A DNA stretch of 25,008 bases. Origin: an uncultured Armatimonadia bacterium (lineage in GTDB: Bacteria > Armatimonadota > Zipacnadia > Zipacnadales > JABUFB01). The DNA lies in the NCBI GenBank assembly GCA_964542355.1, contig CAZIWQ010000005.1, forward strand, positions 1 through 25,008, read 5' to 3'. A program made the translations under genes and the position numbers. Under the pieces are notes generated by a model, which was not told the DNA's origin, did no database searches, and was given only the letters and a program-made list of their open reading frames with translations. Shown here piece after piece: positions 3 through 19,889 of the stretch (the first letter of the stretch is position 1; each line of letters begins with the position of its first letter).

Positions 3-1451
3 CAGCCCTCGCGCGGCCTTGCCGGCCACACACGCTCCGTAGACCTTCAGCCCCCAGTCCTCCCAGGCCTGGCGGGCCGCCGACAAGAGCGCCGTCTTTC
101 CGGTCCCCGCGATCCCACTGACTACCTGCACCGACCCCGGCCGGCGGGTGATATGCTCCAACGCCTCTGTCTGCTGCGGCGTCAGGGAGATGCCCCTCTT
201 GTAGTACAGCCACCATTGTGCCTCTATGAACCAGTGTTTGCTGACCACATGCCGCCGATCACCCCTAGACTGCTCCACCATACTCAACAGGTGCTGTTCC
301 AGCGCCAGCACCTCGCGTGTCGTATACCGCCGCTCCCCCTCCCACTCCCCCAGACACAGCACCTCCTCGGAACTGCGCAGCTCCTGGGCAGCACGGGCCG
401 TGATCTCTCGCGCCGTCAGCCCCGTCCCTTGGCCGAACTCCGCCATCCGTCGCACCAGGTCCCGCGCCGTGAAGTGGTTGGCATCATGGGTGAGCAGCTC
501 CAACGCGCCGGCGGTGATCCCATGCAGCGCCTCGTGAGTGTTGATCTGCCGCCGCGAGCGGTGCAGAACGCCTGCGACCTGCTGCGGGCCCCAGCCTAGT
601 CTCTCCCCAATTTCGTGCCACTGAGCGAATAACTTCTCCCGCGGCTCCGGGGCCACGTCCTTCTTGTCCCGCGTCAGCACCGCCACCGTGGCCGCTCCTC
701 CGGCACTCGACCACCCGCGCTCCTCCATCGCCGTCATGATCTGTTGGCGCCGCTTCGAGAACTCCTGCATGACCCTCTCCGAAACTCCCGCCACCTCGAA
801 CCAGGTCTGGACACGAACACACCTTACCCCCAGCCCCTGCTCCAACTGCGTCGCGAACTCCGCTCGGTATAGCGCCCCCGCAGCCATCTTGTGCTGGTAG
901 TAGGGTCGGCTGCGGATCGTCCCCGTGGTCCCATCCTCCCGGACCCCCAGGTTAGGGATCAGCAGATGGGTATGGAGCAGCGGGTCCTTGGCCCGCGAGG
1001 TATGGTGGTCGAAGGCTGCCATCGCCAGGGCAACACGTTGCTCGTGCACCCCGCCCCGGCCCCGCCGCGTGAAGGTCGCCTGCTCCTCTAAGTAGCGTAG
1101 CGCCTCCTCAACCGCCCGTGCGTGGGCCGCCTCGATCACCTGCCTTATCTCCGGCGACGCCTGGCTCCACAGCACACTCACGCTCTTCGGCGCCGAGAAG
1201 GTCAGGTCCCAGCCCTGCTGTCGCTGGGGTTGCCCGGCGCTCTGCACCAGCGCCGTCTCCCCGTCCGGTGAGAAGCCCTGCAGGAGATTGTGTAGTGGCT
1301 CTCTGTTCACCATCCCCATGAGCCCCAGGGCCTCGGCGCCCTGACCCAGCCACCGGCCCGGTGGCTCACCGCCAGCCACGTAGTAGTCCTCTCGTGCCAG
1401 GTTCAGGTAGTACTCCTCGCGCCCGCTCCCCATGGCCCCGATGGACAGCAT
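3..1451 (-). CDS. mobF: MOBF (TrwC/TraI-like) conjugative relaxase fused to RecD-like helicase, 3'-truncated by the window edge
   Basis: Not in the ORF track; manual translation from ATG 1451: MLSIGAMGSGREEYYLNLAREDYY (paired Tyr), WDLTFSAPKSVS, HUH motif HHTSRAKDPLLHTH, then Walker A GIAGTGKT and GKAARGL at the edge. Frame checked at 1451, 887 and 5. Confidence 0.93.
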   Translation of the reverse strand, partial: MLSIGAMGSGREEYYLNLAREDYYVAGGEPPGRWLGQGAEALGLMGMVNREPLHNLLQGFSPDGETALVQSAGQPQRQQGWDLTFSAPKSVSVLWSQASPEIRQVIEAAHARAVEEALRYLEEQATFTRRGRGGVHEQRVALAMAAFDHHTSRAKDPLLHTHLLIPNLGVREDGTTGTIRSRPYYQHKMAAGALYRAEFATQLEQGLGVRCVRVQTWFEVAGVSERVMQEFSKRRQQIMTAMEERGWSSAGGAATVAVLTRDKKDVAPEPREKLFAQWHEIGERLGWGPQQVAGVLHRSRRQINTHEALHGITAGALELLTHDANHFTARDLVRRMAEFGQGTGLTAREITARAAQELRSSEEVLCLGEWEGERRYTTREVLALEQHLLSMVEQSRGDRRHVVSKHWFIEAQWWLYYKRGISLTPQQTEALEHITRRPGSVQVVSGIAGTGKTALLSAARQAWEDWGLKVYGACVAGKAARGL

Positions 1452-2925: not shown

Positions 2926-3002
2926 GCTGTTCTCCCAAAAGGGGGATGGTCCATTCCATCCACGCGTACCTGGTGGAATGGACCAGCCCCCGAGGGAACA
3001 GC
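2926..3002. repeat. 77-nt imperfect inverted repeat directly upstream of the 84-aa gene
   Basis: TGGTCCATTCCA (2947-2958) and TGGAATGGACCA (2974-2985) are perfect complements; GGGGG/CCCCC and GCTGTTC/GAACAGC extend the stem. Confidence 0.85.
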
Positions 3003-3480
3003 GGGGCCCTGCCGGTGGGGAAGCGGAAGCAGAAGCCGGGAAGGCACGGGAAGTGACGGCCCCCCCAGGGGCTGGCGCGCCCCGTGCCCGGCAGCGACGC
3101 GACCGCCGGCGGGAATGGCCCATGGCAGACAGCCCAGGCCGCCAGAGAGCCGCGGGCGCACGGGCAACTGGCCGGGGAAACGGTAGGCACGGCGGGCAAC
3201 GGTCAGGGAAGCCGAACAGCCGGGAGAGGGGACCACGACGTAGGGCGCAGACAGTTGCTGCGGGTGGCTCAGGCGCGGGGCGTTGCCCCTGTCGGCAGGG
3301 GTGACCTGGGCAGGGCGCGAGGCACGGCAGAGAGCATGACCGGGGGGCGCGGGGGACGGCCAGAGAGGGAGATGACCGGTGAGACACAAGCGGCGCCGCG
3401 AGCACAGACCTGACCGGGGGAGCCGGCTGAGGCCGGGCGCGCAGCCAGGAGCAAGAGGTCCTGCGGCGGGATCGGCAGGG

Positions 3481-4725
3481 TCACGAGGAGGGGTCATGGT
3501 CCAGCTGAGGGGAGGGGCAGGGCGGCAGCTGCCGGTTCACAGTGCGGTCCCAGGCCCAGAAGTCCAGCACGCGGCCCCGTTCGGCAAAGAACGCCAGGCA
3601 CCGCTCGCGATGACTGCCCGGAGCGTCGAAGGCCGCCAGACAGCGGGCGCGCATGGGCTCTGACAGAGGCAGGCGCGCGTGAGCGGCACGGAGCTGGGCC
3701 TCGTGGGTCTGAAACTCCTCCCACAGTCTGGGCTCCTGGGCCATGATCTCCCCCAACCGCTGGTCGAGGTACCCCGCATACGCTGCCTGCCAGGCGGCAG
3801 CATAGTCATCTCGGGCGCGGTTGGCCTCAGCGCGCGCGGCGGTGGCAGCCTGCCGTCGCGCGCACGCCTGTGCTTGTCGGTAGCCCCGCGGTGGGCCATA
3901 GGCCCCCTCGATGGCGCACCGCAGCCACGCCCCCGGACTGCCCCGCAGTTCCGCTGCTTTGTAGGGCAGGTAGGCCAGTTGGCGGCGGCATTCTGCGGGG
4001 CTGGCGCCGGCGAGCCGCACCGCGTCCTCCCGGTTCACGTCCTGCGCCACCAATGCGGCAACGAGGTCCTCAGTAGCAGCTTCTGCTGCTGTTTCTTGTT
4101 CTGTCTCTTGTTCTGTCTCTTGTCTCTCCCGTTCTGGGAGGACCCCCTCTCCCAACATCGGAGGACCCCCGCCAGTATCTGAGAGGACGTTCTCCCGATC
4201 TGGGAGAGCCCTCTCCCCCACCTCCGAAGAGACCTGCTGAGCAGGCAGGGCCGGTTCATTCCCAAGCTCACCGACGAAGTCGAGATTGAGGCGGTACGTC
4301 GTTTGATCGTGCTCGCCCGTGCTGGCATCCAGGTTTCGTTGGCGAACGAGTAGCCCCCGTGCTTCCAGCGACTTGGCCGCCCGCGCCACGCTCGATACGG
4401 ACAGCCCCGTCCCCCGATCCAGCACACTCCCGTCGCGGCGGCGGATCCCCCGCGCCAGCTGCTGCAGGCTGATGCGGTCCCGGTCCTTCCCAAAACCGTA
4501 CGTCCGGCGGGCCACGTACAACAGCACTTTGAGTTCAGCCCCGGTGAGTGCCCACATCCAGTGATCCAGGATCAAGTCTGGTATCTGTGTGCTGTTCGGT
4601 ATCAGGCTCCTGACCATAGGCCCCCCACTGACTGCGCGAGTGTCTCGATCCTCTGATGCGGCCACCCCCTCTCTCGATGCGCCATCGTTTGGCTGCTCAT
4701 CCCGTTGTGTAGCTTCCTCGCTCAA
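3481..4725 (-). CDS. Phage O-like / wHTH replication initiator, paralog 1 (TTG start 4725; alternative ATG 4617)
   Basis: STQIPDLILDHWM..LTGAELKVLLYVARRTYGF.KDRDRISLQQL..GI..RDG..LDRGTGLS...V.RA.KSLE.RGL wHTH; internal DNA repeats; helical SPGAWL..AI domain. Confidence 0.75.
   Translation of the reverse strand: MSEEATQRDEQPNDGASREGVAASEDRDTRAVSGGPMVRSLIPNSTQIPDLILDHWMWALTGAELKVLLYVARRTYGFGKDRDRISLQQLARGIRRRDGSVLDRGTGLSVSSVARAAKSLEARGLLVRQRNLDASTGEHDQTTYRLNLDFVGELGNEPALPAQQVSSEVGERALPDRENVLSDTGGGPPMLGEGVLPERERQETEQETEQETAAEAATEDLVAALVAQDVNREDAVRLAGASPAECRRQLAYLPYKAAELRGSPGAWLRCAIEGAYGPPRGYRQAQACARRQAATAARAEANRARDDYAAAWQAAYAGYLDQRLGEIMAQEPRLWEEFQTHEAQLRAAHARLPLSEPMRARCLAAFDAPGSHRERCLAFFAERGRVLDFWAWDRTVNRQLPPCPSPQLDHDPSS
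4095..4222. repeat. Intragenic iteron-like array of rep1 plus 12-bp tandem repeat
   Basis: TCTCCC-N5-GGGAG-like dyads at 4125, 4148, 4170 (degenerate), 4191, 4212 (degenerate), period 21-23 bp; CTTGTTCTGTCT x2 plus a partial copy at 4095-4127. Confidence 0.6.
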
Positions 4726-4821
4726 CTATCCACCAGGCCCGAGCACCTGACAAGGTGCGCGCAGGAATGAGTAATGTAGTCCGCACGCCCGGCCTGGCGT
4801 CAGACATCTGCCGCAATGCCT

Positions 4822-4938
4822 CAATACTGTACTACCGTAATACCGTCAGACAGTCAAGCCTCATAGCCGCTAAACCGTACTACGGCTGCACTGTAATACG
4901 GCAGTGCCGCTTCGCGTCTTGACATCCTTGCGGTATTG
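4822..4938. repeat. Candidate centromere/operator 8-mer repeats (consensus YAMTACYG) upstream of parA
   Basis: CAATACTG/TACTACCG/TAATACCG tandem at 4822-4845; CCGTACTACGG 4875-4885; CTGTAATACGG 4891-4901; inverted CGGTATTG 4931-4938. Confidence 0.6.
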
Positions 4939-4947
4939 CTGTTCAAT
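4919..4947 (+). promoter_or_regulatory. Sigma70-type promoter of the parA operon
   Basis: TTGACA (4919-4924), 17 bp, TTCAAT (4942-4947), 25 bp before the ATG at 4973. Confidence 0.6.
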
Positions 4948-4972
4948 GCCCCTACTCGAACCGAGGGATCAC

Positions 4973-5752
4973 ATGACACGGACCATCGCCATCTGCAACC
5001 AAAAGGGTGGGGTCGGCAAGACCAACACCGTCGCGAACCTCGGTGCTGCTTTCGCCCAGATGGGGAAGCGGACGCTGCTGGTCGACCTCGACCCCCGCGG
5101 TGATCTCACGTCGTCGTTCGGCATCGATGCGGATACGCTGGAAGTGACCGTCTATGAGGCGCTCTTTGACCCAGCGGTCTCGCTGGTGGACGCCTCGGTG
5201 CTGCTTCCTGCTGACAATCTGGCCCTGGTCCCCGCCAATACCAATCTGGCGGCCGGCGAGATGCTGCTGATGGAGCGGGGGAGAGGGGACAGGGAGAGGA
5301 TACTGGCTGATCTCCTGCAGCAAGTCAGCCCGGAGGTCGAGTTCGTCCTCATCGACACCCCACCAGGGCTGCAACTGCTCACGGTCAACGCTCTGGTCGC
5401 CGCACGCGAGGTTCTGGTCCCCCAGCAGTGCTCTTTCATCAGTCTCCATGGCCTCAAACAGCTTCAGAAGACGGTGGATGGCGTCCGCGAGGCTCTCAAC
5501 CCCGAGCTTCACATCTGTGGGATCGTGGCGACCATGCTGGACAGGCGCACGCTCCATCACCGCGAGGTCATCACACTGATGCGCGAGGCCTTTGGTGAAC
5601 TGGTCTTCGAGACCATGATCCCCACCAGCATCCGCTTTCAGGAGGCCCCGGCGACGGGCACACCTGTCATCCAGTACGCTCCGCAGTCTACGGGAGCTGT
5701 CGCCTATGTTGCACTAGCTATGGAGGTGCTAGACCGTGGCAAAGCGAGCTGA
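4973..5752 (+). CDS. parA: ParA/Soj family partition ATPase (short, type Ib-like)
   Basis: MTRTIAICNQKGGVGKT deviant Walker A, LLVDLDP, LIDTPP; GAGGGA RBS before ATG 4973. Confidence 0.95.
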   Translation: MTRTIAICNQKGGVGKTNTVANLGAAFAQMGKRTLLVDLDPRGDLTSSFGIDADTLEVTVYEALFDPAVSLVDASVLLPADNLALVPANTNLAAGEMLLMERGRGDRERILADLLQQVSPEVEFVLIDTPPGLQLLTVNALVAAREVLVPQQCSFISLHGLKQLQKTVDGVREALNPELHICGIVATMLDRRTLHHREVITLMREAFGELVFETMIPTSIRFQEAPATGTPVIQYAPQSTGAVAYVALAMEVLDRGKAS

Positions 5753-6194
5753 ACTGCCGAAGGCCAACGCCTTCTTCGGGGGCGCGTCCCCAGCGACGCG
5801 GGAGGCTGTAGCCCCGTCTCATGAACCTGCCGAAGCGGCCGCTGTAGTGTCTGAGGGTGCGACCGAGCTTCCTCTCCAGGAGGCACCCCCAGCGCCTGTT
5901 GCTGTCGAGGCTGGACGCGGCGCTACAGGTACACCTGAGGCTGTGGTCCCCCCTGAGGCCGTCGTCAGCACCACCACCAAGGACGGGGGGGGCGACGTGG
6001 AGAAGGTCACCTTGTACCTTCCCCCTGACATCATCCGACAGCTTGAGGTGACACGGGTTGACCTGCTCGTGCGGTACGGCGCGAAGGTCAACCGCTCACG
6101 GATCGCCGCCGCCATCCTCCGGCAGACGCTGGAGGACATCTCCCAACATCACCCCACGGGAGATCGCCTGATGGAGGCCCTGACGCGGGCATAG
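5736..6194 (+). CDS. RHH partition adaptor (ParG-like) with long flexible N-terminus
   Basis: GTG start overlaps the parA end; Ala/Pro/Glu-rich linker; C-terminal KVTLYLPPDIIRQLE...VNRSRIAAAILRQ RHH pattern. Confidence 0.7.
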   Translation: MAKRAELPKANAFFGGASPATREAVAPSHEPAEAAAVVSEGATELPLQEAPPAPVAVEAGRGATGTPEAVVPPEAVVSTTTKDGGGDVEKVTLYLPPDIIRQLEVTRVDLLVRYGAKVNRSRIAAAILRQTLEDISQHHPTGDRLMEALTRA

Positions 6195-6228
6195 AGCACA
6201 CGCCGTCGGTAACCCAGGAGTTCATGCT

Positions 6229-7488
6229 ATGCCGCCCCCCAAGGATGATGACTTCGAGTTCGAAGGCTTCTTGGCGCCCTCCTATACCCAGGTGCCGGAC
6301 GAGGCCTTCGACAAGCTCATGGCCAGGCTCAGTCCCGCTGAGTTTAAGGTCATGATGTACATCATCCGTCGCACCTTTGGGTTCAAGAAGGGCGCCGACG
6401 CGATCTCCATCAGCCAGATTGTCTCCGGCATACGAACCAAAGACGGCACGCAGCTCGACATGGGAACGGGCCTCACCAGACGGGGTGTGACCAAAGCACT
6501 GGCCGAACTGGCAAGGCGCAAGGTCATCGTGGTCGAGCGCCGACGCAGCGTGAAAAAGGGCTTCGAGGCCACCGTCTACCGCCTAAACATCATCGGCAAC
6601 CTCGGCAATTTCCCCCATCCCGATGATCCCCGCGTCCAGCCGCTCCTGCAGCTTCCGCAAGACCCTAGGGAACTGAGTTCCCTAGGGCTAGGGAACTCAG
6701 TTCCCCAGGCTAGGGAACTGAGTTCCCTAGAACAAGAAACAGTAGTACAAGACACAGAGAAACAACAACAACAGCCCCGTCCGCGCCGGGCCAAAGCCTC
6801 CCCCAAAACCACACCCGTCAGCGAACCAACGGATGTTGTTGTTGCTTCTTCGAATGATACGACGACAGACACGGCCAACGACATCCAGACCGGTCTCGCC
6901 GCTCTCGGCGTCGCACAGTCGACCATACGCAGCCTGCTCAAGAACCGGGACCACACGACAGTGGGACGCTGGGTCGCCTATGTCGAGCATAAACTGGCCA
7001 GCGGCTGGATGCCTCATGAGTCTCCGGCGGCGTGGATTGTCACGGCCATCCGCTCCGGTGACTGGGTCATCCCGGATTGGTTCCAGACACCTGAAGAACA
7101 GGCCGCCGCCGCCGCTCAAGAGGTACAGCTGGTTGAGGCAGAGAGAAGACGACGTGACGAGGAAGCAGAACTTGAACGCCGCAAAGCTGAGCAGCAACGG
7201 CGCGCCGTCGAGAGTGAACTGGGGGTAGGGGAGAGCACGCGGGAGACCTGGGAACGGGTACAGGATCTGCTCCGGGACACTGAGCACTTCTCAGTTGCGT
7301 TCCTCGGCAGCCACCTGTTGCCGCTCAACGGTCGCGTGGCCACCGTGGTGACTTCAGCCCCCTTCTTCCGGGAGGTCATTGAGAAGCGCGCCGAGGCTCT
7401 GTGTTCAGTCATCTCCGAGGTGTCTGGCAAGAACATCGAGGTCGTAGAGGTAAAGCTCTTCCAGCCGACAGCGGGGGCGGGGAAATAG
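6229..7488 (+). CDS. Phage O-like / wHTH replication initiator, paralog 2, with DnaA-domain-I-like C-terminus
   Basis: YTQVPDEAFDKLMARLSPAEFKVMMYIIRRTFGFKKGADAISISQI..GIRTKDG..LDMGTGLT aligns by eye with paralog 1; AGGAG RBS; internal palindromic repeats. Confidence 0.8.
   Translation: MPPPKDDDFEFEGFLAPSYTQVPDEAFDKLMARLSPAEFKVMMYIIRRTFGFKKGADAISISQIVSGIRTKDGTQLDMGTGLTRRGVTKALAELARRKVIVVERRRSVKKGFEATVYRLNIIGNLGNFPHPDDPRVQPLLQLPQDPRELSSLGLGNSVPQARELSSLEQETVVQDTEKQQQQPRPRRAKASPKTTPVSEPTDVVVASSNDTTTDTANDIQTGLAALGVAQSTIRSLLKNRDHTTVGRWVAYVEHKLASGWMPHESPAAWIVTAIRSGDWVIPDWFQTPEEQAAAAAQEVQLVEAERRRRDEEAELERRKAEQQRRAVESELGVGESTRETWERVQDLLRDTEHFSVAFLGSHLLPLNGRVATVVTSAPFFREVIEKRAEALCSVISEVSGKNIEVVEVKLFQPTAGAGK
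6663..6730. repeat. Three 21-bp palindromic iteron-like repeats inside rep2
   Basis: CTAGGGAACT(G/C)AGTTCCC(T/C)AG at 6665-6685, 6688-6708, 6710-6730, followed by an A-rich tract. Confidence 0.9.
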
Positions 7489-7616
7489 ACCACGCGATCA
7501 GCCCTCCTTCAAGCCGTTCCTACGAGGCTCCCCTCTCCCCAAGGCCCTCGGACCAACGCCGAATAGCCGGGTGAAGGTCACACCCACTCCCAACCCTTCC
7601 AAGGAGGCGCAAGCTG

Positions 7617-11126
<3,510 letters not shown>

Positions 11127-11207
11127 GTGGGGCGAGGGGGGCTATGGCCGCACCTCCGCTGCCGCTGAGGTCCTGGACGCGCTGGGGTAACCGCCTCCTG
11201 CTCGTGA

Positions 11208-11270
11208 ATTGATACTTCTGGGCGCTCTATGTACCAATCCGAGCCCGCGATTGATACTTCGGTACCAATC
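11208..11270. repeat. Duplicated ATTGATACTTC / GTACCAATC motifs upstream of the methylase
   Basis: ATTGATACTTC at 11208 and 11250; GTACCAATC at 11231 and 11262; ATTGATAC and GTACCAAT are 7/8 complementary. Confidence 0.7.
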
Positions 11271-11300
11271 TGCCGGGCTGCTTGTTGTTGAGGTCCTGTG

Positions 11301-14156
11301 ATGCCCTACCGCAAGAAGCTCATCGAGGTTGCCCTGCCGCTCGAAGCCATCAACCGGGAGGCGGCGCGGGAGAAGTCCATCCGGCATGGGCATCCGTCCA
11401 CGCTGCACTTGTGGTGGGCGCGGCGGCCGCTGGCGGCGTGTCGGGCCGTGCTCTTCTCGTCGCTGGTGGACGATCCCGAGGAGCCCGAAGCACCCCAGGA
11501 GTATCTCGACGAACTCGACAAGCTGCCGGGGGGCGTGGGGTTGCCGCCGGAGACGCCCATCGGGGAGGTCCGGCGCGAGAAGCTCTTCCGCTTCATCGAG
11601 GAGCTGGTGAAGTGGGACAACTCCAACAACGAGCGGATCATCGGCACTGCCCGGCGGCTGATCCTGGCGGCCACGGAGGGCAACCCGCCGCCGGTGCTGG
11701 ACCCCTTCTGCGGCGGGGGCTCGATCCCCCTGGAGGCGCAACGGCTCGGGCTGGAGGCGCATGGCAGTGACCTGAACCCGGTCGCGGTGCTCATCACCAA
11801 GGCCCTAGTCGAGATCCCGCCCAAGTTCGCCGGGCAGGCGCCGGTGAACCCGGAGGCGCGCCGGCGCAAGGACACCTCGGCCTGGCCCGTCGCCACCGGC
11901 CTGGCGGACGATGTGCGGTGCTACGGCAAGTGGATGCGCAACGAGACCGAGAAGCGTTTTGGGTACCTCTATCCGAAGGTGAAGCTCCCGAGAGAGCAAG
12001 GTGGGGGAGAGGCGACGGTCATCGCCTGGTTGTGGGCCCGTACGGTACAGTGCCCGAACCCAGCCTGTGGGCGCGAGATGCCACTCCTGTCAAACCTGGT
12101 GCTCTCGTCTAAGGCGGGCAAGGAGTGCTATCTTCGCCCCGTCTTCGATGCCCGCGTCCTGTCGTTTGACGTAGGGCCGAACCGCCCTGCACACCCAGCA
12201 GATCCGAAGAAGGGCTTCAAACGGGGGATGTCGGGCATCTTTGAGTGTGTCTTCTGCGGGACGGTTACAACGCGGGACTACGTCGCGACAGAAGGTGTTG
12301 CAGGCCGACTGGGGCGGATCCAGACTGCCGTTGTCGCTGAAGGACCAAAGGGGAGAGTATACCTCCCAGCCGAAAGCTCTCCGACACCTGAGAACGTGCC
12401 AGAAGTGAACGACACCCGTGGCCTTGATGTGGAGTTTGCTCCAAACCCTCGCGACCTCTGGTGCCGGAATTTCGGACTGACACGACCGCGGGATGCCTTC
12501 ACGCCCCGCCAGCTCGTGGTACTGACGACCTTCTGTGATTTGGTCGGCGAGGTACGCGGGAAAGTGCGCGAGGACGCCCTCGCCGCCGGTATGGCCGACG
12601 ACCCCATATCGCTCGACGCTGGCGGCACGGGGGCGCAGGCGTACGCCGACGCCGTGGGGACGTATTTGGCTTTGGTCGCCAGCAAGGCCACAGCATTCCA
12701 CAACACGCTCGCGCGCTGGCGCGCTGGAGAGGACAAGTCCGCCCCCGCCATCGGACGACAGGCGATCCCGATGGTATGGGACTTCACTGAGGTCAATCCG
12801 TTCGCCGGCGCAGGCGGAGACTTCGACGGGATCACAGATGGTGCCGCCAAGACGTGCGCGTCTCTGCCAGCGGCACCCAGAGGGACTGCACAGCAACTGG
12901 ACGCAGCCGCTTCCCTGCTTACCGCCCCTCGTCCACTCATATCAACCGATCCCCCGTATTACGACAACATCGCCTACGCCGACCTATCCGACTTTTTCTA
13001 CGTGTGGCTGAGAAGATCGCTGGGCAGTGTATACCCGCAGCTCTTCTCCACGCTCCTCGTGCCGAAGGCGCAGGAGTTGATAGCAGCGCCTTATCGCTTC
13101 GACGGCAGCCGGCAGAAGGCTCAGAACTTCTTCGAGGACGGCCTGGGCAGAGCCTTCAGCCACGCAAGGAGCGCGCAGCACTCTGCCTATCCGCTTCCTG
13201 TCTTCTATGCCTTCAAGCAGACCGAGACGGAGGAGAACGACCACGACGCCGACGCGTCCACTTCGGCCTCAACGGGTTGGGAAACCATGCTGGAGGGTCT
13301 GCTGACTGCGGGGTTCTCCATGACTGGCACCTGGCCGATGAACACCGAGATGAAGACGAGACAGGTTGCGATGGGTACCAACGCCCTTGCCTCCTCCATC
13401 ATCCTGGTCTGCCGCCCTCGTCCCGACAACGCACCGATGGCAACCCGCCGCGAGTTCACTTCAGCCCTGCGCAAAGAGCTGCCACCCGCGCTGGCACAAC
13501 TCACCCACGCGGGCATTCCACCGGTGGACCTGGCGCAGGCGACCATCGGGCCGGGCATGGCCGTCTTCTCCCGCTACTCGAAGGTGCTGGAGGCCGACGG
13601 GAGCCCCATGACCGTCCGCACCGCGCTCCAGATCATCAACCAGGAGCTTGACGCCTACCTGACCGAGCAAGAGGGCGATCTGGACGGCGACACCCGCTTC
13701 TGCATCGCCTGGTTCGAGCAGTACGGGCTCAACGAGGCCGCCTTCGGCGAGGCGGACGTGCTCGCCCGCGCCAAGAATACCTCGGTTGAGGGTATCGAGG
13801 AGGCCGGCGTCCTCCACGCCCGCGCCGGTAAGGTGCGCCTGCGCCAGCGTTGCGACTACCCGGAGGACTGGGACCCGCAGACCGACCGCCGCCTGACCGT
13901 CTGGGAGTGCACCCAGCACCTGATCTGCGAGCTGGAGCGGAGTGGGGAAGAGGGGGCGGCGGCGCTTGTCCGCCGTCTCGGTGGCGGCATGAGCGAAGAC
14001 GCCCGCGCCCTGGCCTACCGCCTCTACGCCATCGCCGACCGCAAGGGCTGGACCGACGAAGCCCGCGCCTACAACGGCCTGGTGGTCTCCTGGCCGGCCA
14101 TTGTCGAGAAGGCAGCACGGGCACCGGCGGCGGAACAGCCGGGGCTGTTTGAGTAG
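11301..14156 (+). CDS. DUF1156-type N6-adenine DNA methyltransferase
   Basis: KKLIEVALPL..IN...REKSIRHGHPSTLHLWWARRPL N-terminus; motif I DPFCGGGS; motif IV TDPPYYDN; Cys pairs CPNPAC and CVFC in the central region; ATG 11301 (GTG 11298 alternative). Confidence 0.92.
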   Translation: MPYRKKLIEVALPLEAINREAAREKSIRHGHPSTLHLWWARRPLAACRAVLFSSLVDDPEEPEAPQEYLDELDKLPGGVGLPPETPIGEVRREKLFRFIEELVKWDNSNNERIIGTARRLILAATEGNPPPVLDPFCGGGSIPLEAQRLGLEAHGSDLNPVAVLITKALVEIPPKFAGQAPVNPEARRRKDTSAWPVATGLADDVRCYGKWMRNETEKRFGYLYPKVKLPREQGGGEATVIAWLWARTVQCPNPACGREMPLLSNLVLSSKAGKECYLRPVFDARVLSFDVGPNRPAHPADPKKGFKRGMSGIFECVFCGTVTTRDYVATEGVAGRLGRIQTAVVAEGPKGRVYLPAESSPTPENVPEVNDTRGLDVEFAPNPRDLWCRNFGLTRPRDAFTPRQLVVLTTFCDLVGEVRGKVREDALAAGMADDPISLDAGGTGAQAYADAVGTYLALVASKATAFHNTLARWRAGEDKSAPAIGRQAIPMVWDFTEVNPFAGAGGDFDGITDGAAKTCASLPAAPRGTAQQLDAAASLLTAPRPLISTDPPYYDNIAYADLSDFFYVWLRRSLGSVYPQLFSTLLVPKAQELIAAPYRFDGSRQKAQNFFEDGLGRAFSHARSAQHSAYPLPVFYAFKQTETEENDHDADASTSASTGWETMLEGLLTAGFSMTGTWPMNTEMKTRQVAMGTNALASSIILVCRPRPDNAPMATRREFTSALRKELPPALAQLTHAGIPPVDLAQATIGPGMAVFSRYSKVLEADGSPMTVRTALQIINQELDAYLTEQEGDLDGDTRFCIAWFEQYGLNEAAFGEADVLARAKNTSVEGIEEAGVLHARAGKVRLRQRCDYPEDWDPQTDRRLTVWECTQHLICELERSGEEGAAALVRRLGGGMSEDARALAYRLYAIADRKGWTDEARAYNGLVVSWPAIVEKAARAPAAEQPGLFE

Positions 14157-14189
14157 TTGCAGGCGAGGACGCCCCAGAACCACAATACA

Positions 14190-14219
14190 TGGTGAACTCA
14201 CCACTTTTTGTGGTATGAT
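14190..14219 (+). promoter_or_regulatory. Extended -10 promoter with overlapping inverted repeats (candidate autoregulatory operator)
   Basis: TG-G-TATGAT at 14211-14219; TGGTGA-AC-TCACCA at 14190-14203; ACCAC-TTTTT-GTGGT at 14200-14214. Confidence 0.5.
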
Positions 14220-14226
14220 GAGTGTC

Positions 14227-14880
14227 ATGAACACGACGAGCGAGAGAAGCGAACCGACTGGTTTGTTCGGGAGAACGCGCAGTGCGGTGCTGGGCCTGCT
14301 GTTCGGACAGCCGGAGCGCGACTTCTACCAGCAGGAAGTGGCGCAGGTGGCGGGGGCGAGGCTGAGCGCGGTGCAACGCGAACTGGCGAGCCTGGTGGCT
14401 GCGGGACTGGTAACGCGGCGCAAACGGGGGAACCGGGTCTACTACCAGGCGGACGCGCGCTGCCCCCTGTTCGCCGAGGTGCGGGGCATCATCGCCAAGA
14501 CGACTGGGCTGACGGGGGTCCTGCGCCGGGCATTGGAGCCACTGCAGGAGCGTATCGCGGTCGCCCTGGTGTTCGGCTCGCTGGCGGCAGGCACGGCGAT
14601 GAGCGGGAGCGATGTGGATGTCCTGGTGGTGGGAGATATGTCACTGCGAGACGTGGCGCCGCTGCTCGCGCCTACACGGGAAGCGTTGGGGCGAGAGGTG
14701 AACCCGGTGGTGGTATCGCTCGGAGAGCTGCGGGAGAAGATCGCGAGGGGCGACCACTTCCTGAGCACGGTGCTGTCGGGACCGAAGCTGTTCGTGATCG
14801 GAGACGCCGATGACCTTGGACGACTTTGCGCAGAGGGGCATGCTGCACCAACACAAGACGACGGCCCAGGAGATCGCTGA
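14227..14880 (+). CDS. wHTH (ArsR/MarR-like) fused to minimal nucleotidyltransferase (MNT antitoxin-like)
   Basis: N-terminal wHTH (SAVQRELASLVAAGLVTRRKRGNRVYY); GS-LAAGTAMSGS-DVD is exactly GSX10DXD. Start could be 14215, 14218 or 14227. Confidence 0.85.
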   Translation: MNTTSERSEPTGLFGRTRSAVLGLLFGQPERDFYQQEVAQVAGARLSAVQRELASLVAAGLVTRRKRGNRVYYQADARCPLFAEVRGIIAKTTGLTGVLRRALEPLQERIAVALVFGSLAAGTAMSGSDVDVLVVGDMSLRDVAPLLAPTREALGREVNPVVVSLGELREKIARGDHFLSTVLSGPKLFVIGDADDLGRLCAEGHAAPTQDDGPGDR

Positions 14881-15316
14881 CCTGTGGGCGATAGCCGAGG
14901 TGGGGCTGGCAGACGCTCGTGTGGGAGCGATCTCGCTGGACCGGCGCTTTACCGCGGCATACGACGCGGCGCGGTCGCTGGCGACGATCCCCCTGGCGTG
15001 CGCGGGCTACCGCACCGCCGGCGCGGGACACCACGCCACGACCTTCGCGACACTGCCCCTGACTATGGGTAGCGAGTACCAGCCCCTTGTTGCGTTCCTG
15101 GACATGTGCCGGGTGAAGCGGAACGTCTCTGAATACCGGCGCGTGGGCCAGGTCCAAGCGGGGGATGTACAGGACCTGATCGAGGCAACGGAGGAGCTGC
15201 AGGCCAAGCTGGAGCAGTGGCTCGCGACAGAGCACCCAGCCCTGAAGCCCAGCGCCGGGGGGCCGCCCGAGACAACATCGGACGCGCAGGCCTCATCGCA
15301 GAACAGTGAGGAGTGA
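14810..15316 (+). CDS. HEPN-fold protein paired with the MNT
   Basis: RFTAAYDAAR...GYRT..GHH...LDMCRVKRNVSEY; R-X4-Y in place of R-X4-H; overlaps the MNT 3' end. Confidence 0.75.
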   Translation: MTLDDFAQRGMLHQHKTTAQEIADLWAIAEVGLADARVGAISLDRRFTAAYDAARSLATIPLACAGYRTAGAGHHATTFATLPLTMGSEYQPLVAFLDMCRVKRNVSEYRRVGQVQAGDVQDLIEATEELQAKLEQWLATEHPALKPSAGGPPETTSDAQASSQNSEE

Positions 15317-15322
15317 AGTACC

Positions 15323-18121
15323 ATGGCATTGAGGTCCTGGCGTGAAGTCGTGACCCCCCATCCCGATGTGGCCACCGGCCGCTACCATCAGGCAGAGTTC
15401 GCCGCGGACCTGGCCCAGGTGCTCTCTAAGAAGGCGGAGCCGGAGTACCAGGACCCGGCGGAGTTCTTCGCCCGCACCTACCTGACCGAGGGCATCTCGC
15501 GGCTCCTGCAGGTCTCGCTGGAGCGTCTGAGCGGCAAGGGTGGAGAGCCGGTCATCCAGCTCAAGACCGCCTTCGGCGGCGGCAAGACGCACACCATGCT
15601 GGCGCTCTACCACTTGGTCTGCGCCGAAGCAGCCCCGGATAAGCTCTCCGGCATCCCGGCAGTCCTCGAAGCGGTCGGCATCGAGGCGCTGCCCCAGGCG
15701 AAGTGCGCCGTCATCGCCGGAACCGCACTGAACCCGTCTCGTGAGCGTAAGGACGCAGCGGGGAACGGCGTGACCGTGAGGACGCTCTGGGGAGAGATCG
15801 CGGCACAGCTCGGCGGGCAGGAAGCCTACGCCATCGTCGAGAGCGCCGACCAGACGGGCACGGCGCCGGGTTCTGACGATCTGGTGGCGCTCTTCGAGCA
15901 CGTGGGCCCCTGTGTGGTCCTGCTGGACGAGCTGGTCGCCTACGCCCGGAACATCTACGGGAAGCAGGGCCTGACCGGCGGCAGCTTCGACTCAAACATG
16001 ACCTTCGTGCAGTCACTCACCGAGGCTGCCCGCCGCAGTCGGAATGCGCTTCTGGTGGCCGCGATCCCCGAGTCGAACATCGAGATCGGGGGAGAGGCCG
16101 GTGAGGCGGCGCTGGCGCGCATCGAGAACACCTTCGGGCGCATGGAAGCCGTCTGGAAGCCCGTAGGAGCCACAGAGGGCTTCGAGATCGTGCGCCGGCG
16201 GCTCTTCACCCCGGTGAAGGACGAAAAGGCCCGAGACGCCGTCTGCTCGGCCTTCAGCAACCTGTATGCCGAGGGCGCCGCCGACTTCCCCGCCGAGTGC
16301 AAAGAGGGCGCGTACCTGCAGCGGCTCCGCTCCGCGTACCCGATCCACCCCGAGGTCTTTGACCGGCTGTATGGCGACTGGGCCACGTTGGAGCGTTTCC
16401 AGCGTACCCGTGGTGTGCTGCGCCTCATGGCCAGCGCGATCCACGAGCTGTGGACGCGCGGTGATCAGGCGCTCCTCATCATGCCGGGCTCGATCCCCCT
16501 GGACGCGCCCCGCGTCCGGGACGAGCTGACCCGGTATCTGACGGACGGCTGGACCGCCGTCGTGGACACGGATATTGATGGGGAGCAGTCTGAGCCCCGG
16601 AAGATCGACGAAGCGAACCCCCGGCTCGGAGCCCTATCTGCAGCCCGCCGGGTCGCCCGGACTGTGTTCCTGGGCAGTGCCCCCTCGGTACGCCAGCAGA
16701 ACGTCCGGGGCGTCGAGGACATCCGAATCCGCCTGGGCGTCGTTCAGCCCGGCGAATCGGTGGCCGTCTTCAATGACGCCCTGGGGCGCCTCAGCGACCG
16801 CCTGACGCACCTGTACGGTGAGGGTGGGCGGTACTGGTATGACCTGCAGCCCAACCTCAAGCGGACAATGGAGGACCGCGCGTCGCGGCTGAAGCCCGAC
16901 GCTGTGGAGGTGGAGATCGAGCGCCGGCTGCGCGCCGAAAAGGAGCGCGGCGCCTTCCGCGCAGTCCACGTCTGTGTCCCCAGCGCCGATGTGCCGGATG
17001 AGCCGACAGCGCGGCTGGTGGTGCTGAGCCCCACAACCCCGCACCGTCGAGGTGGGGGAGAGGCGCCGGCCATAGGGGCCGCGAGAGAGATCCTGGAGCA
17101 ACGCGGCAACAGCCCCCGGCAGCATCGGAACATGCTAGTGTTTGTGGCTCCCGACGCGGATGGTCTCACGGCGGTCGAGCAGGAAGCCCGGAAGTACCTG
17201 GCCTGGAAGTCCGTTGAAGAGGACCACGAGACCCTCAACCTCGACGCGCGTCAGCATCGCCAGGCGGTGGAGGCCAAGGAGCGATCAGACGAGACCGTGG
17301 ATGTGCGCCTCCAGGAGGCCTACTGCTGGTTGCTTGTCCCGACCCAGGACGGCACGGGCCCATTGGAGTGGGAGACGACCCGGATCGCGGCGGGGAGTGA
17401 CTGCCACGTCGCGCGGGCATCGAGGAAGGTCACGGGGGCTGAGCAGCTGATCGCGCGCTGGTCGCCGGCGCTCCTGAAGATGGAGCTGGATCGTTGGCTA
17501 TGGAAGGACGCGGCGCACATCTCCACTCAGAAACTCTGGGAGTACTTGGCCACCTACTGCTACCTGCCCCGCCTACGGGATGTGGAAGTGCTGACAGAGG
17601 CGATCAGGGAGGGCCTGAAGAGCCGCGACTACTTTGCGTACGCTGGCAGTGTCGACGAGAGCGGCCGCTACCTGGGCCTGCAGTTCGGTGCGGCTGGGGC
17701 AAGCGTGTACGTAGATTCCGCAAGCGTACTGGTGAAGCCCGAGGTGGCCGCGGATCAGCTCGCGGCCGCTGTCCCCGCGACGGAAGACGCGCTGCCAGTG
17801 GACGTGCCCAACGGTGGCGCCGTGCCTCCGGTACGCGAGAAACCGACGCAGGTTGAGCTCCCGCTGGGGGAAGGGGGGCCTGCCGCCCCTACACGCTTCT
17901 TCGGGAAGGTCGTTCTGGACAGTGCCCGTGTCGGCCGCGACGCAGGCCGGATCGCCGAGGAGGTCATTCAGCACTTGGCGGGCCTGGTAGATTCGAATGT
18001 GCGCGTGACGCTGGAGATCGAGGCCGACATCCCATCCGGAGCCTCGGACGCCGTCGTGCGGACAGTGACCGAGAACTGCCGGGTGCTGAAGTTTGAGGCG
18101 CAGGGGTTTGAGGAGAGCTGA
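15323..18121 (+). CDS. DUF499-type AAA+/P-loop ATPase of restriction-like systems
   Basis: SWREVVTPHPDV...AEFAADL N-terminus; Walker A TAFGGGKTH; Walker B VVLLDE; YPIHPE; FQRTRGVLR; C-terminal RFFGKVVLD...VTENCRVLKF. Confidence 0.9.
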   Translation: MALRSWREVVTPHPDVATGRYHQAEFAADLAQVLSKKAEPEYQDPAEFFARTYLTEGISRLLQVSLERLSGKGGEPVIQLKTAFGGGKTHTMLALYHLVCAEAAPDKLSGIPAVLEAVGIEALPQAKCAVIAGTALNPSRERKDAAGNGVTVRTLWGEIAAQLGGQEAYAIVESADQTGTAPGSDDLVALFEHVGPCVVLLDELVAYARNIYGKQGLTGGSFDSNMTFVQSLTEAARRSRNALLVAAIPESNIEIGGEAGEAALARIENTFGRMEAVWKPVGATEGFEIVRRRLFTPVKDEKARDAVCSAFSNLYAEGAADFPAECKEGAYLQRLRSAYPIHPEVFDRLYGDWATLERFQRTRGVLRLMASAIHELWTRGDQALLIMPGSIPLDAPRVRDELTRYLTDGWTAVVDTDIDGEQSEPRKIDEANPRLGALSAARRVARTVFLGSAPSVRQQNVRGVEDIRIRLGVVQPGESVAVFNDALGRLSDRLTHLYGEGGRYWYDLQPNLKRTMEDRASRLKPDAVEVEIERRLRAEKERGAFRAVHVCVPSADVPDEPTARLVVLSPTTPHRRGGGEAPAIGAAREILEQRGNSPRQHRNMLVFVAPDADGLTAVEQEARKYLAWKSVEEDHETLNLDARQHRQAVEAKERSDETVDVRLQEAYCWLLVPTQDGTGPLEWETTRIAAGSDCHVARASRKVTGAEQLIARWSPALLKMELDRWLWKDAAHISTQKLWEYLATYCYLPRLRDVEVLTEAIREGLKSRDYFAYAGSVDESGRYLGLQFGAAGASVYVDSASVLVKPEVAADQLAAAVPATEDALPVDVPNGGAVPPVREKPTQVELPLGEGGPAAPTRFFGKVVLDSARVGRDAGRIAEEVIQHLAGLVDSNVRVTLEIEADIPSGASDAVVRTVTENCRVLKFEAQGFEES

Positions 18122-18259: not shown

Positions 18260-19171
18260 GTGACTGAGTACCACCTGCAACTTCCGGGGAACTGGGTCCA
18301 CGCACAGGTTCTGGAAAACGCCCTGGGCAGGGCTGGTGAGCCACACGGGGACGTTTACGGTTCCATGCGCTGTGTGTTTCCGTCTGGCTGCAAAGTCATG
18401 GTAGACGCGTGCGTACGGCTTCTCTCACTTGTGAACCAGTTGGCGCATGTTGGAAGGCAGGTAACACTCGAATTCGAGGAAGGGCCGGATGGCACGATGG
18501 GGTACCTCGACCGGATCGGCTTCCTCGAACAGCTGGCTTCCACAGTTGCCGTAGTTCCAGCGCCTCCGGCACAGTCCGCAGGGGCTCGCTACCGCGGGCG
18601 CAATCCGGAGCTCGTTGAGCTACGGGCGATAAGCTTGGGGAAACGAGACAGAGATCTGCCACAGCAATTGGCCGACGCGGTCGTGGAGGCATGTTCCGGG
18701 CGCACTGACCGCAAGCCATTGGGGCATGCGACATATACTCTCTTTGCTGAGCTGGTCGACAATATCTTCGAGCACAGCGAGACGCAAGTCGATGGGTACG
18801 CAGCGGTGCAGGCATACCATGGTGGAGGAGAGGTCTGGGTAGCAGTATCGGATAGCGGGTGCGGGATCCTGGAAACGGTCCGACCGTCACTCAAAAACGG
18901 CTCGCTTCGGCGCCTATCAGACCCGGAACTCATTGTACATATGTTCAATGAAGGCCTGTCACGATTTGGGGCACAACGCGGATGCGGTCTACACCAGTGT
19001 GCTAGTCACGCCCTGAAGTACCAAGCCCATCTTCTGCTTCGCCTGCCGACATCTTGTCTTGAGCTGGTGCCCGGCGACGGCTGCTACGTACCCAACAAGG
19101 CATATATCCAGGCGGGCTTGCCGCTTCTCTGGGGGACGCATATCGTCTTCCAGTTCCGGCTTGACAAGTAG
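18260..19171 (+). CDS. capK: STAS-like plus GHKL (SpoIIAB-like) kinase, CapK-like
   Basis: N box FAELVDNIFEHS, G1 VSDSGCGI, G2 RGCGL; N-terminal domain with MGYLDRIGF; GTG start; adjacent STAS-wHTH gene. Confidence 0.72.
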   Translation: MTEYHLQLPGNWVHAQVLENALGRAGEPHGDVYGSMRCVFPSGCKVMVDACVRLLSLVNQLAHVGRQVTLEFEEGPDGTMGYLDRIGFLEQLASTVAVVPAPPAQSAGARYRGRNPELVELRAISLGKRDRDLPQQLADAVVEACSGRTDRKPLGHATYTLFAELVDNIFEHSETQVDGYAAVQAYHGGGEVWVAVSDSGCGILETVRPSLKNGSLRRLSDPELIVHMFNEGLSRFGAQRGCGLHQCASHALKYQAHLLLRLPTSCLELVPGDGCYVPNKAYIQAGLPLLWGTHIVFQFRLDK

Positions 19172-19193
19172 CCTCACTTCTGGTTTAATGAAG
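19161..19193 (+). promoter_or_regulatory. Near-consensus sigma70 promoter in the capK 3' end driving capS
   Basis: TTGACA (19161-19166), 17 bp, TTTAAT (19184-19189) with extended TG at 19181-19182. Confidence 0.7.
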
Positions 19194-19196
19194 GCG

Positions 19197-19748
19197 ATGA
19201 ACGAGAAGAGTGTCACCATACGCCTGCGGGATCACATGGACCATGACGACGCCTGGGGGCACGCCGCAGGACAAGAGGTGTTCAGTAGGCTACTTGCGGT
19301 GCTGCGGGCACATGTGGGGATCGCGATGTTCCGTGTCTCACTGGAAGGTGTGACACGAACAGACGCATCCTTTCCTCGTGAGAGCGTAGTACGTCTCGCC
19401 AAGCAGTTTCGGAAGGAGAAGGGGTTCTGCTTGGTCAATGCGGCCGATAGTGATCTTCTCGACAACTGGGATGCGGCAGCGCAGAAGCAGGAGCAGCCGC
19501 TTGTGGTCTGGCGCAGCGATGAGTGGCGCCTGCTAGGCCCCAAGCCTTCGGAGGGACTGCGACCTCTGTTTGAGCACGTACTAAGCCGAGGAGCGGTGAC
19601 GACAAGTGAAGCCTGCGAGGCACTTCAGCTGAATGCGCCGAACGCAAGCAATAAGCTGAAGACGCTGTGGGAGCAAGGGTACCTGCTCCGGCGAGAGCGA
19701 GCCGCTGTAAGCGGCGGCCTAGAGTATGAGTACTTCATCGCTCGATAG
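19197..19748 (+). CDS. capS: STAS-like (DUF4325-like) plus wHTH transcriptional repressor, CapS-like (alternative ATG 19188)
   Basis: STAS-like RVSLEGVTRTDASFPRE with candidate phospho-Ser; C-terminal wHTH TTSEACEALQLNAPNASNKLKTLWEQGYL...SGGLEYEY. Confidence 0.72.
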   Translation: MNEKSVTIRLRDHMDHDDAWGHAAGQEVFSRLLAVLRAHVGIAMFRVSLEGVTRTDASFPRESVVRLAKQFRKEKGFCLVNAADSDLLDNWDAAAQKQEQPLVVWRSDEWRLLGPKPSEGLRPLFEHVLSRGAVTTSEACEALQLNAPNASNKLKTLWEQGYLLRRERAAVSGGLEYEYFIAR

Positions 19749-19778
19749 ATTAGGCCCTTTTTGTTGGAACTTCATTCA

Positions 19779-19793
19779 TCTGGTTCATTGAAG
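19779..19793 (+). promoter_or_regulatory. Second copy of the TCTGGTTyAwTGAAG motif upstream of the MBL gene (candidate operator)
   Basis: TCTGGTTCATTGAAG matches TCTGGTTTAATGAAG (19179-19193) at 13/15. Confidence 0.5.
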
Positions 19794-19889
19794 CAGAATT
19801 GGCGCGGCGATAGGCAATCCTCACAGGCGGAATAGGTCCAAGGTGGAGGACCACAAAGTCCAAAACGGAGTGCAAGCTGGAGGTACACC

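Follow-up and report, generated by a model that had tools for sequence, protein, structure and literature searches.

Two lambda-O-like initiators with predicted in-gene origins flank one partition module on a plasmid-like contig of an uncultured Armatimonadia bacterium

RESULTS

Two intact initiator genes lie on either side of one partition module

We analyzed contig CAZIWQ010000005.1 (assembly GCA_964542355.1) of an uncultured Armatimonadia bacterium over its whole length of 25,008 bp, referred to here as the window. The contig is metagenomic (wastewater sludge), has a GC content of ~65%, and is plasmid-like. Two genes for lambda-O-like replication initiators, rep1 and rep2, lie on it in divergent orientation and enclose one partition (par) module (Table 1). 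An earlier interpretation made from the letters alone (the sequence-only reading) had proposed two related initiators, each with its own repeat array, around this module. We found that both rep reading frames are intact, the longest rep1 open reading frame (ORF) spanning 3481..4725 on the minus strand. The start of rep1 had been placed at TTG 4725, which proved too long: in the relative L009 (relatives carry L numbers here), a 2-nt indel falls within the supposed extension, and the two sequences are collinear from ATG 4617 onward. A promoter-like site, TTGTCA-17-GATAGT at 4753-4725 on the minus strand, also speaks against the TTG start.

Rep1 and Rep2 are homologous, as had been claimed. BLASTP aligned them with 32% identity over 271 aa (E=3e-26), and the shared winged helix (ELKVLLYVARRTYGF / EFKVMMYIIRRTFGF; RDG..LD.GTGL), the linker, and the helical SPxAW..AI segment all fall within this alignment. 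The alignment stops past SPxAW..AI, and queries made from the two C-terminal parts (Rep1_C and Rep2_C) gave no cross-match, in agreement with the earlier view that the C-termini differ. Both proteins, and 18 of the 21 Rep2-family members, pass the gathering cutoff of Pfam PF04492 Phage_rep_O (28.7 bits). With the NCBIfam equivalog domain TIGR01610 phage_O_Nterm, Rep1 scored 27.4 and Rep2 31.4 bits, below the cutoff of 45.5. Judged by these profile scores, Rep1 and Rep2 are distant relatives, not equivalogs, of lambda O. We rejected a recent duplication of the rep genes. Each has closer relatives in other elements (55-90% identity, against 32% between the two), which indicates that the pair was assembled and not duplicated in place.

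As predicted, the module between the reps comprises a single parA and a gene for a 152-aa protein. The parA ORF opens at GTG 4904, and its likely start is ATG 4973. Its product has ParA-type NCBIfam matches below the curated cutoffs, and dN/dS (the ratio of nonsynonymous to synonymous substitution rates) against L009 is 0.085. The 152-aa protein ends in a KVTLYLPPDII..NRSRIAAAIL segment that is common to the small proteins encoded after parA in L009, L008, L001, L006, and L035. It had been called a ribbon-helix-helix protein. A strand-helix-helix-like pattern is indeed conserved at its C-terminus, but searches with hidden Markov models (HMMs) gave no match in Pfam, also at E values up to 10, or in NCBIfam. 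Upstream, the spacer between rep1 and parA holds four copies of GTAMTACSG at 4829-4901. The window has five, against 0.18 expected, and these repeats are a candidate centromere or operator by sequence. The module may be a type Ib partition system (ParA with a ribbon-helix-helix adaptor): its ParA is clear and repeats lie upstream, and the candidate adaptor has the strand-helix-helix-like pattern but no HMM match. The start of rep2 lies 35 nt downstream of the 152-aa gene, and on account of this short gap rep2 is probably cotranscribed with par in one operon.

Table 1. Positions of the features discussed in the text
Feature	Coordinates	Strand	Description
TrwC/TraI-type relaxase ORF	1-1901 region	minus	at least 484 aa; runs off left contig end
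NikA-like accessory gene	1455-1901	minus	precedes the relaxase ORF
Two small ORFs downstream of rep1, and GC-rich stretch	2324-2930 and 2930-3480	minus (2324-2930)	ORFs conserved-looking, without family match; stretch ~550 nt, 73% GC
rep1	3481..4617	minus	378-aa initiator; Pfam Phage_rep_O, 34.8 bits
Rep1 domains (AlphaFold model)	aa ~11-110; aa ~120-172; aa 174-360		O-like winged helix; disordered linker; helical C-terminal domain
ori1 inverted repeat	4071..4091		CAGCAGCAG..CTGCTACTG; directly after the A-rich tract; hairpin
ori1 A-rich, purine-skewed tract	4089..4122	minus	3 x CAAGARACAG, 12-nt period; codes QETEQETEQET
ori1 repeat array	4133..4219	minus	~4 imperfect palindromes of type GGGAGnnnnnnCTCCCAGA, spaced 21-23 nt
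ori1 palindromes	4199-4219, 4176-4196, ~4155-4175, 4133-4153	minus	~4155-4175 degenerate
Shared control region (rep1-parA spacer)	4618..4972		355 bp; rep1 promoter-like site, 4 x GTAMTACSG
parA	4973..5752	plus	Walker-type partition ATPase; Pfam AAA_31 (E=1.4e-47), CbiA
152-aa partner gene of parA	5736..6194	plus	candidate centromere-binding adaptor
rep2	6229..7488	plus	419-aa initiator; Pfam Phage_rep_O, 41.2 bits
Rep2 domains (AlphaFold model)	aa ~24-120; aa ~125-210		O-like winged helix; disordered linker; then helical middle and coiled coil
ori2 repeat array	6665..6730	plus	3 x perfect 21-nt palindrome CTAGGGAACTGAGTTCCCTAG, spaced 23 and 22 nt
ori2 A-rich, purine-skewed tract	6731..6776	plus	AACAAGAAACAG..ACAACAACAACAG; directly after the array
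ori2 inverted repeat	6758-6776 and 6831-6849		arms AGAAACAACAACAACAGCC and GGATGTTGTTGTTGCTTCT; 19 nt, 89% complementary
Rep2 C-terminal alpha/beta domain	7231..7458 (aa ~335-410)	plus	resembles DnaA domain I and DciA
Hma defense system	7617-18121		complete; directly downstream of rep2; full-length PADLOC matches
PDC-M05A nucleotidyltransferase/HTH gene	14101-14880		inserted between HmaB and HmaC
Possible second defense-like cluster	18260-24028
HATPase_c protein	18260-19171		in the possible second cluster
375-aa protein	19890-21017		weak MBL/LmuA-like matches
765-aa E2-E1(ThiF)-JAB fusion	20980-23277		in the possible second cluster
269-aa ORF	within 18260-24028		unmatched; in the possible second cluster
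Tyrosine recombinase	24105-24902	minus	Phage_integrase, E=5e-27; right end

Each rep gene contains its own repeat array and an adjoining A-rich tract

The sequence-only reading held that each Rep has its own iteron array, different in sequence, along with a repeat-encoded linker and an A-rich tract. We found this arrangement in both genes. The palindrome of rep2 gave three matches in the window against 0.00 expected, and we found no further Rep2-type repeat within 3 mismatches elsewhere in the window, for example at promoters. The L001 gene, whose product is 55% identical, has a related array, three copies of CTAGTCAACTGAGTGGACTAG, at the same place. The A-rich tract after the rep2 array is a candidate unwinding element on compositional grounds: the 40-mer at 6728-6767 has the lowest GC content of the region from 3300 to 7700 (35%, against a mean of 63.5%), with 72% purines. 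The pair of inverted-repeat arms that follows is also present in L001.

The repeats of rep1 are weaker. Their pattern gave 6 matches in the window against 1.9 expected, which is weakly significant, and an array of the same sequence type occupies the same position in L009, L008, L006, and L010. The A-rich tract here is likewise a candidate unwinding element. The 40-mer at 4081-4120 is tied for the second-lowest GC content of the same region (42.5%), and purines make up 72-81% of the coding strand in the two post-array tracts. The (CAG)3..(CTG)3 inverted repeat that comes next is also found in L006, L008, L010, L011, L014, and L022. In lambda ori, too, a palindrome follows the AT-rich tract. CAAGARACAG occurs in the whole window only in these two tracts, as three copies at 4089-4122 (minus) and one at 6733 (plus), or four against 0.07 expected.

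The predicted origins are conserved at the DNA level

Relatives were gathered by protein search, contig look-ups, and scans of genome and metagenome contigs. The Rep1-class set comprises 18 genes of 44-75% GC, some on unassigned metagenome contigs and others in metagenome-assembled genomes (MAGs) assigned to Armatimonadota, Gemmataceae, and Pyrinomonadaceae. In all 18, about four palindromic repeats are followed by two or three copies of CAAGARACAG and then by (CAG)3..(CTG)3. The sequence of the palindrome varies by lineage (for example, GGTAGGCCAGAAAAAAGCCTACC, GGTGGTCTCAAAATCGGACCACC, and GTCGGAAAATCCGAC). We found that the codons of the QET motif are nearly fixed in these genes: Gln is CAA at 51 of 51 positions (35% elsewhere in the same genes), and Thr is ACA at 50 of 51 (14% elsewhere).

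Genes with a Rep2-type C-terminus (Rep2_C class) have an order of their own. Whatever their N-terminal domain, the repeats are followed by (CAA)n and, 25-65 nt later, by TGTTGTTGTTGCT. The latter is kept in 8 of 10 genes (53-69% GC), and (CAA)n is kept at the DNA level.

Comparison of rep1 with its counterpart in L009 (~90-91% identical) gave a dN/dS of 0.17 overall, 0.03 in the winged helix, and 0.17 in the C-terminal domain. In the origin segment, the synonymous rate (dS) was 0.135, against 0.32-0.39 in the flanks, and dN/dS was 0.73. A low dS together with a raised dN/dS is the signature expected if the DNA, and not the linker peptide, is under selection.

The two C-terminal halves differ, and that of Rep2 resembles DnaA domain I and DciA

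In the AlphaFold models of both Reps, the only long stretches of low confidence (predicted local distance difference test, <50) are the segments encoded by the repeats, residues 120-172 of Rep1 and ~125-210 of Rep2. In each case, the winged helix before this segment and the C-terminal half after it are modeled with confidence. A profile of the Rep2 family matched DnaA domain I among PDB sequences (4tps_B, E=4.5e-5). Foldseek superposed the last ~77 residues of Rep2 on DnaA domain I (4tps_D) with a template modeling score of 0.71 and a root mean square deviation of 2.3 Å, and the same domain also superposes on DciA in a DnaB complex (8a3v_C) and on the HobA-bound DnaA domain (2wp0_D). Pfam DnaA_N matched outright in 2 of the 21 Rep2-family members. 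As modeled, this end domain could contact DnaB directly. The helical C-terminal domain of Rep1 is modeled confidently and had no match in the PDB, and the whole-model fold search returned generic winged-helix matches only.

The layout recurs with different partners, and each Rep class is also found without a second Rep

The rep-parA-small gene-rep synteny proposed earlier recurs in three other elements, L008, L034, and L001, with different Rep partners. Together with the window, this makes four elements with two Reps, in three different combinations, and in all four the Rep in second position next to par has a Rep2-type C-terminus. In L008 (7.3 kb), a Rep1-type gene (67% identity) diverges from parA, which is followed by the small gene and a 420-aa Rep. 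The C-terminal half of this Rep is 51% identical to that of Rep2, and its N-terminus is another winged helix (Pfam HTH_36) with other repeats. In L034, an intact HTH_36/Rep2_C Rep diverges from parA, and the Rep2-type gene that follows is cut by the contig end. L001 (85.7 kb, from several samples) matches the window in having parA, the small gene, the Rep2-type gene, and HmaA, and in addition carries a second parA and an HTH_36/Rep2_C Rep whose coding sequence is divided between two frames.

We found that this split Rep (L001 3100-4330; also L002, L003, L028, L029, and L037) differs from the intact copy in L034 by a 22-nt deletion of exactly one repeat. The repeat period is not divisible by three, so that slippage of a repeat within an in-gene origin also inactivates the initiator. 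The possibility that one copy is degenerate in related elements, which the earlier reading had named as a finding that would tell against two origins, is therefore borne out in one relative, L001. The broken copy belongs to a third Rep type, and the Rep2 ortholog of L001 is intact. The dead copy suggests that the two replicons are redundant and does not speak against them. Two short ORFs that we considered as truncated Rep2 genes (an HTH_36 ORF of 143 aa in L001 and one of 146 aa in L006 that was compared in the same way) were set aside, as BLASTP against Rep2 was not significant. Stop-to-stop ORF scanning identified the 143-aa ORF as the N-terminal half of the frameshifted third-type Rep.

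In L009, the same divergent parA and small gene stand beside the Rep1-type gene before the contig ends. Rep1-class genes are the only Rep in the available flanks of L006 and L010-L027, and Rep2_C-class genes are the only Rep in those of L033 and a 38-kb contig of P0007. That each class occurs as the only Rep elsewhere argues that each is self-sufficient.

The family is rare among sequenced plasmids and phages

We found no near-identical DNA of the window among plasmids. PLSDB (72,556 sequenced plasmids) gave a single match, to the N-terminal domain only, on the 816-kb megaplasmid of a cultured actinobacterium, Miltoncostaea oceani (L039; NZ_CP064357.1, 787117-791868). There, the genes after that for an O-like "replication protein" encode an AAA ATPase and a DnaB-like helicase, and by gene content this is a phage-style initiator-loader-helicase module. 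Rep1 had no match in 50,697 cultured phage records. The C-terminal modules of Rep1 and Rep2 were not found in IMG/VR viral contigs, where the search returned relatives of the N-terminal winged helix only. The Rep2-type C-terminal module is rare, with 68 clusters among 1.84 billion representatives. Relatives come from MAGs of Gemmataceae, Armatimonadota, Pyrinomonadaceae, and others, and from Chloroflexota as judged by source names. We found no literature on Phage_rep_O plasmids with repeats.

Both rep genes occur together in independent sequencing runs, and mobilization and defense genes surround them

In three sludge runs, which belong to two studies, pieces identical to the window cover both rep genes evenly (depth 2-5x), and a ~95% variant from one wastewater run also has both genes. 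Apparent joints in such pieces, with sides of 21-38 nt and inconsistent between runs, were taken to be spurious and not to reflect deletion variants. GC skew was not used for origin placement, as it is confounded by gene orientation.

At the left end, the relaxase and the NikA-like gene indicate that the element is mobilizable, and the relaxase running off the end shows the contig to be incomplete. An origin of transfer could be marked by the 40-mer at 1873-1912, where the NikA-like gene starts; this 40-mer has the lowest GC content of the whole window. One of the small ORFs downstream of rep1 encodes 118 aa with the motif GDWG..WVITEADRS..TTILLPDEY, and the other encodes ~86 aa (MANSKPVAEIRYGR...). 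About 550 nt of 73% GC separate these ORFs from rep1 and hold only long overlapping ORFs of doubtful coding value.

The Hma genes downstream of rep2 encode HmaA (SNF2 helicase with NOV_C), HmaB (DUF1156 methylase), and HmaC (DUF499 ATPase). The rep2-HmaA junction is shared with L001, in which the inserted genes are Fic and ParB_N. In the possible second cluster, the E2-E1-JAB fusion is similar to ubiquitin-like conjugation accessories known from CBASS-type systems, and no cyclase was seen. L006 carries BrxL (BREX) and a ThsB-TIR gene (1-1803) near its Rep1-class gene. This and the Hma system suggest that plasmids of this replicon family often carry defense islands. The tyrosine recombinase at the right end may act in multimer resolution or as an integrase. 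The contig has no phage structural genes.

DISCUSSION

The interpretation with which the sequence-only reading began, two lambda-O-style initiators with their own in-gene origins around one par module, forming a dual replicon, is supported by the sequence analysis: the genes are intact, the origin anatomy is found in both, synonymous sites are conserved, the synteny recurs, and each class occurs alone. With moderate confidence, we read the element as a mobilizable plasmid with two replicons, brought together by module exchange, in which two self-sufficient theta-type replicons of lambda O/ori design would surround one parA-adaptor module.

From the homology, anatomy, DNA-level conservation, synteny, and fold similarity, we infer how binding, unwinding, and helicase recruitment might proceed. 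The N-terminal winged-helix dimers would bind the palindromic repeats of their own gene, in the DNA that encodes their own disordered linker. The resulting nucleoprotein complex would open the adjoining A-rich, purine-skewed tract, and the C-terminal half of each Rep would bring in the host helicase. Rep1 would act through its own repeat sequence and an all-helical output domain, and Rep2 through a different repeat sequence and a DnaA-domain-I/DciA-like end for helicase contact. We propose that rep1 is expressed from its own promoter, divergent from parA, and rep2 from the par operon, like repC in repABC. The autonomy of each unit is suggested by its complete anatomy and its occurrence alone elsewhere, and redundancy by the exchange of partners and the broken copy of L001. 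In this reading, the pair was built by replicon-module exchange, and the replicons are redundant enough in function that either could be swapped or lost. Two replicons might be kept as a backup or to widen the host range by way of two helicase-recruitment routes, which are the likelier benefits, to escape incompatibility, or for establishment after transfer.

Several observations weigh against this two-replicon interpretation. We looked for a terminal overlap of the 25,008-bp contig and found none, so the molecule is not closed. Its ends carry a relaxase (left) and an integrase (right), and the element may be integrative instead of a plasmid; by gene content, par, rep, and mobilization genes argue for a plasmid. 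No helicase-loader gene was found on the contig. The window has 0 DnaA boxes against 1.45 expected, a count that is not informative. Among the four rep1 repeats, none is perfect and one is degenerate. Foldseek E values for the DnaA-like domain of Rep2 are modest (4e-3), because only ~77 residues align. States with two Reps include dead copies, such as the frameshifted second Rep of L001, and solitary occurrence was judged on flanks of ±3 to 10 kb and not on whole replicons.

The contig being incomplete, the true origin might lie on the unsequenced part, with the repeats no more than coding repeats of flexible linkers and the proteins DNA-binding regulators. The repeats do translate into repeated peptides. 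They are, however, DNA palindromes about two helical turns apart, their synonymous positions are fixed against genomic codon bias, and the DNA is constrained where the peptide is not. Both proteins carry a replication-initiator domain, and Rep2 also has a DnaA-type domain. We therefore regard this explanation as very improbable. It is unlikely, if worth serious thought, that a single replicon is active and that the other is a fusion remnant, which might serve in incompatibility with or exclusion of related plasmids, regulate neighboring genes, or be decaying. The one-repeat deletion of the L001 lineage, present in assemblies from five samples, and the many relatives with a single Rep fit such a remnant. 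Both genes of the window, however, are intact and have complete sets of repeats, A-rich tract, and inverted repeat. Moreover, rep1 shows strong purifying selection and origin-specific synonymous suppression relative to its 91%-identical relative, and the copy that remains intact in L001 is the Rep2 ortholog.

We give a similarly low likelihood to an obligate or cross-talking pair, in which, for example, Rep2 recruits the helicase for both origins or the shared domain and CAAGARACAG couple them. The SPxAW..AI central domain and the post-repeat motif are common to both genes, the position next to par always has a Rep2-type C-terminus, and the Rep1 C-terminal domain has no recognizable helicase-contact fold. 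On the other hand, 17 of the 18 loci from the genome-contig scan have no Rep2_C-class gene within 10 kb of the Rep1-class gene, nor does L006; Rep2_C-class genes stand alone in L033 and the P0007 contig; and each gene has a complete origin anatomy. A specific version, in which the common central domain or a conserved host factor reads the invariant CAAGARACAG and so couples the origins, and Rep2 loads the helicase at both in a two-initiator system, strikes us as slightly less likely again. The replicons could also divide the life cycle, as in phage P1, which uses oriR for plasmid maintenance and the in-gene oriL for lytic replication: one would provide low-copy, par-coupled maintenance, and the other would fire after conjugative entry or induction. 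The probable linkage of rep2 to par, the separate promoter of rep1 and its orientation in the direction of the mobilization genes, and the relaxase and integrase on the contig are consistent with this. But both replicons are of the same type, we identified no regulatory switch, phage structural genes are absent, and the Rep C-terminal modules were not found in viral contigs or, for Rep1, in cultured phages. Such a division is quite improbable in our view.

The proposed two-replicon plasmid shares features with several known systems. In lambda, ori lies in the middle of the initiator gene, where an AT-rich tract that becomes unwound comes after several dyad-symmetric repeats (PMC7466680). The order of repeats and then A-rich tract within the initiator gene is predicted from sequence for both reps here. 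Rep1 and Rep2 are also like lambda O in having a Phage_rep_O domain, an N-terminal domain that would read the repeats, a C-terminal part that would link to the helicase pathway, and exchange of N- and C-terminal modules. Unlike in a lambdoid module, no P-like loader gene lies beside either rep, HmaA being downstream of rep2 and unmatched small ORFs downstream of rep1. Also unlike in lambda, the C-terminal domains are unrelated to each other, the context is that of a plasmid with par and mobilization genes, and two units stand side by side. Rep2 differs from DnaA in carrying the domain at the C-terminus of a lambda-O-like plasmid initiator, without an AAA+ domain or domain IV, where it would presumably contact the helicase.

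In the repABC operons of alphaproteobacterial plasmids (p42d), an A+T-rich part of the initiator gene contains oriV, and silent mutations there abolish replication (PMC3155836). The order of partition ATPase, adaptor, and initiator (parA, the 152-aa gene, and rep2) and the predicted in-gene origin are alike. In contrast, the in-gene origin of RepC has no iterons, repABC has no second divergent initiator, and Rep2 did not match RepC families in Pfam or NCBIfam. Multireplicon plasmids such as IncF (FIA/FIB/FII) carry several replication systems on one backbone, acquired by fusion or exchange (bioRxiv 10.64898/2026.05.05.722934), and Pseudomonas PFP plasmids have separable replicon modules that are swapped between families, one plasmid having a second replicon (PMC5304414). 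Like these, the contig has two complete predicted replication systems, of which one may decay, as in L001. Unlike these, both replicons belong to one distant family and flank, and apparently share, one par module within 4 kb. The recurrence of the layout with different partners points to a stable design more than to an occasional cointegrate.

In-gene origins and multireplicon plasmids are already known, and the Rep family has no characterized member. Within the collections and papers that we searched, the new elements are this family as a likely plasmid replicon of poorly studied phyla, its family-wide predicted origin signature, the O-like initiator fused to a DnaA-domain-I/DciA-like domain, and the recurrent layout of two initiators around one par module. 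For replication biology, the family provides a naturally swapped set of recognition and output modules, the fused initiator itself, and a clear example of a gene in which selection at the DNA level overrides codon bias. A replicon of ~1.2 kb, with initiator and predicted origin in one gene and a recognizable signature, is also a practical vector lead for phyla that lack cloning vectors, because standard broad-host-range replicons have been reported to fail in Planctomycetes (bioRxiv 10.1101/2024.01.22.576637).

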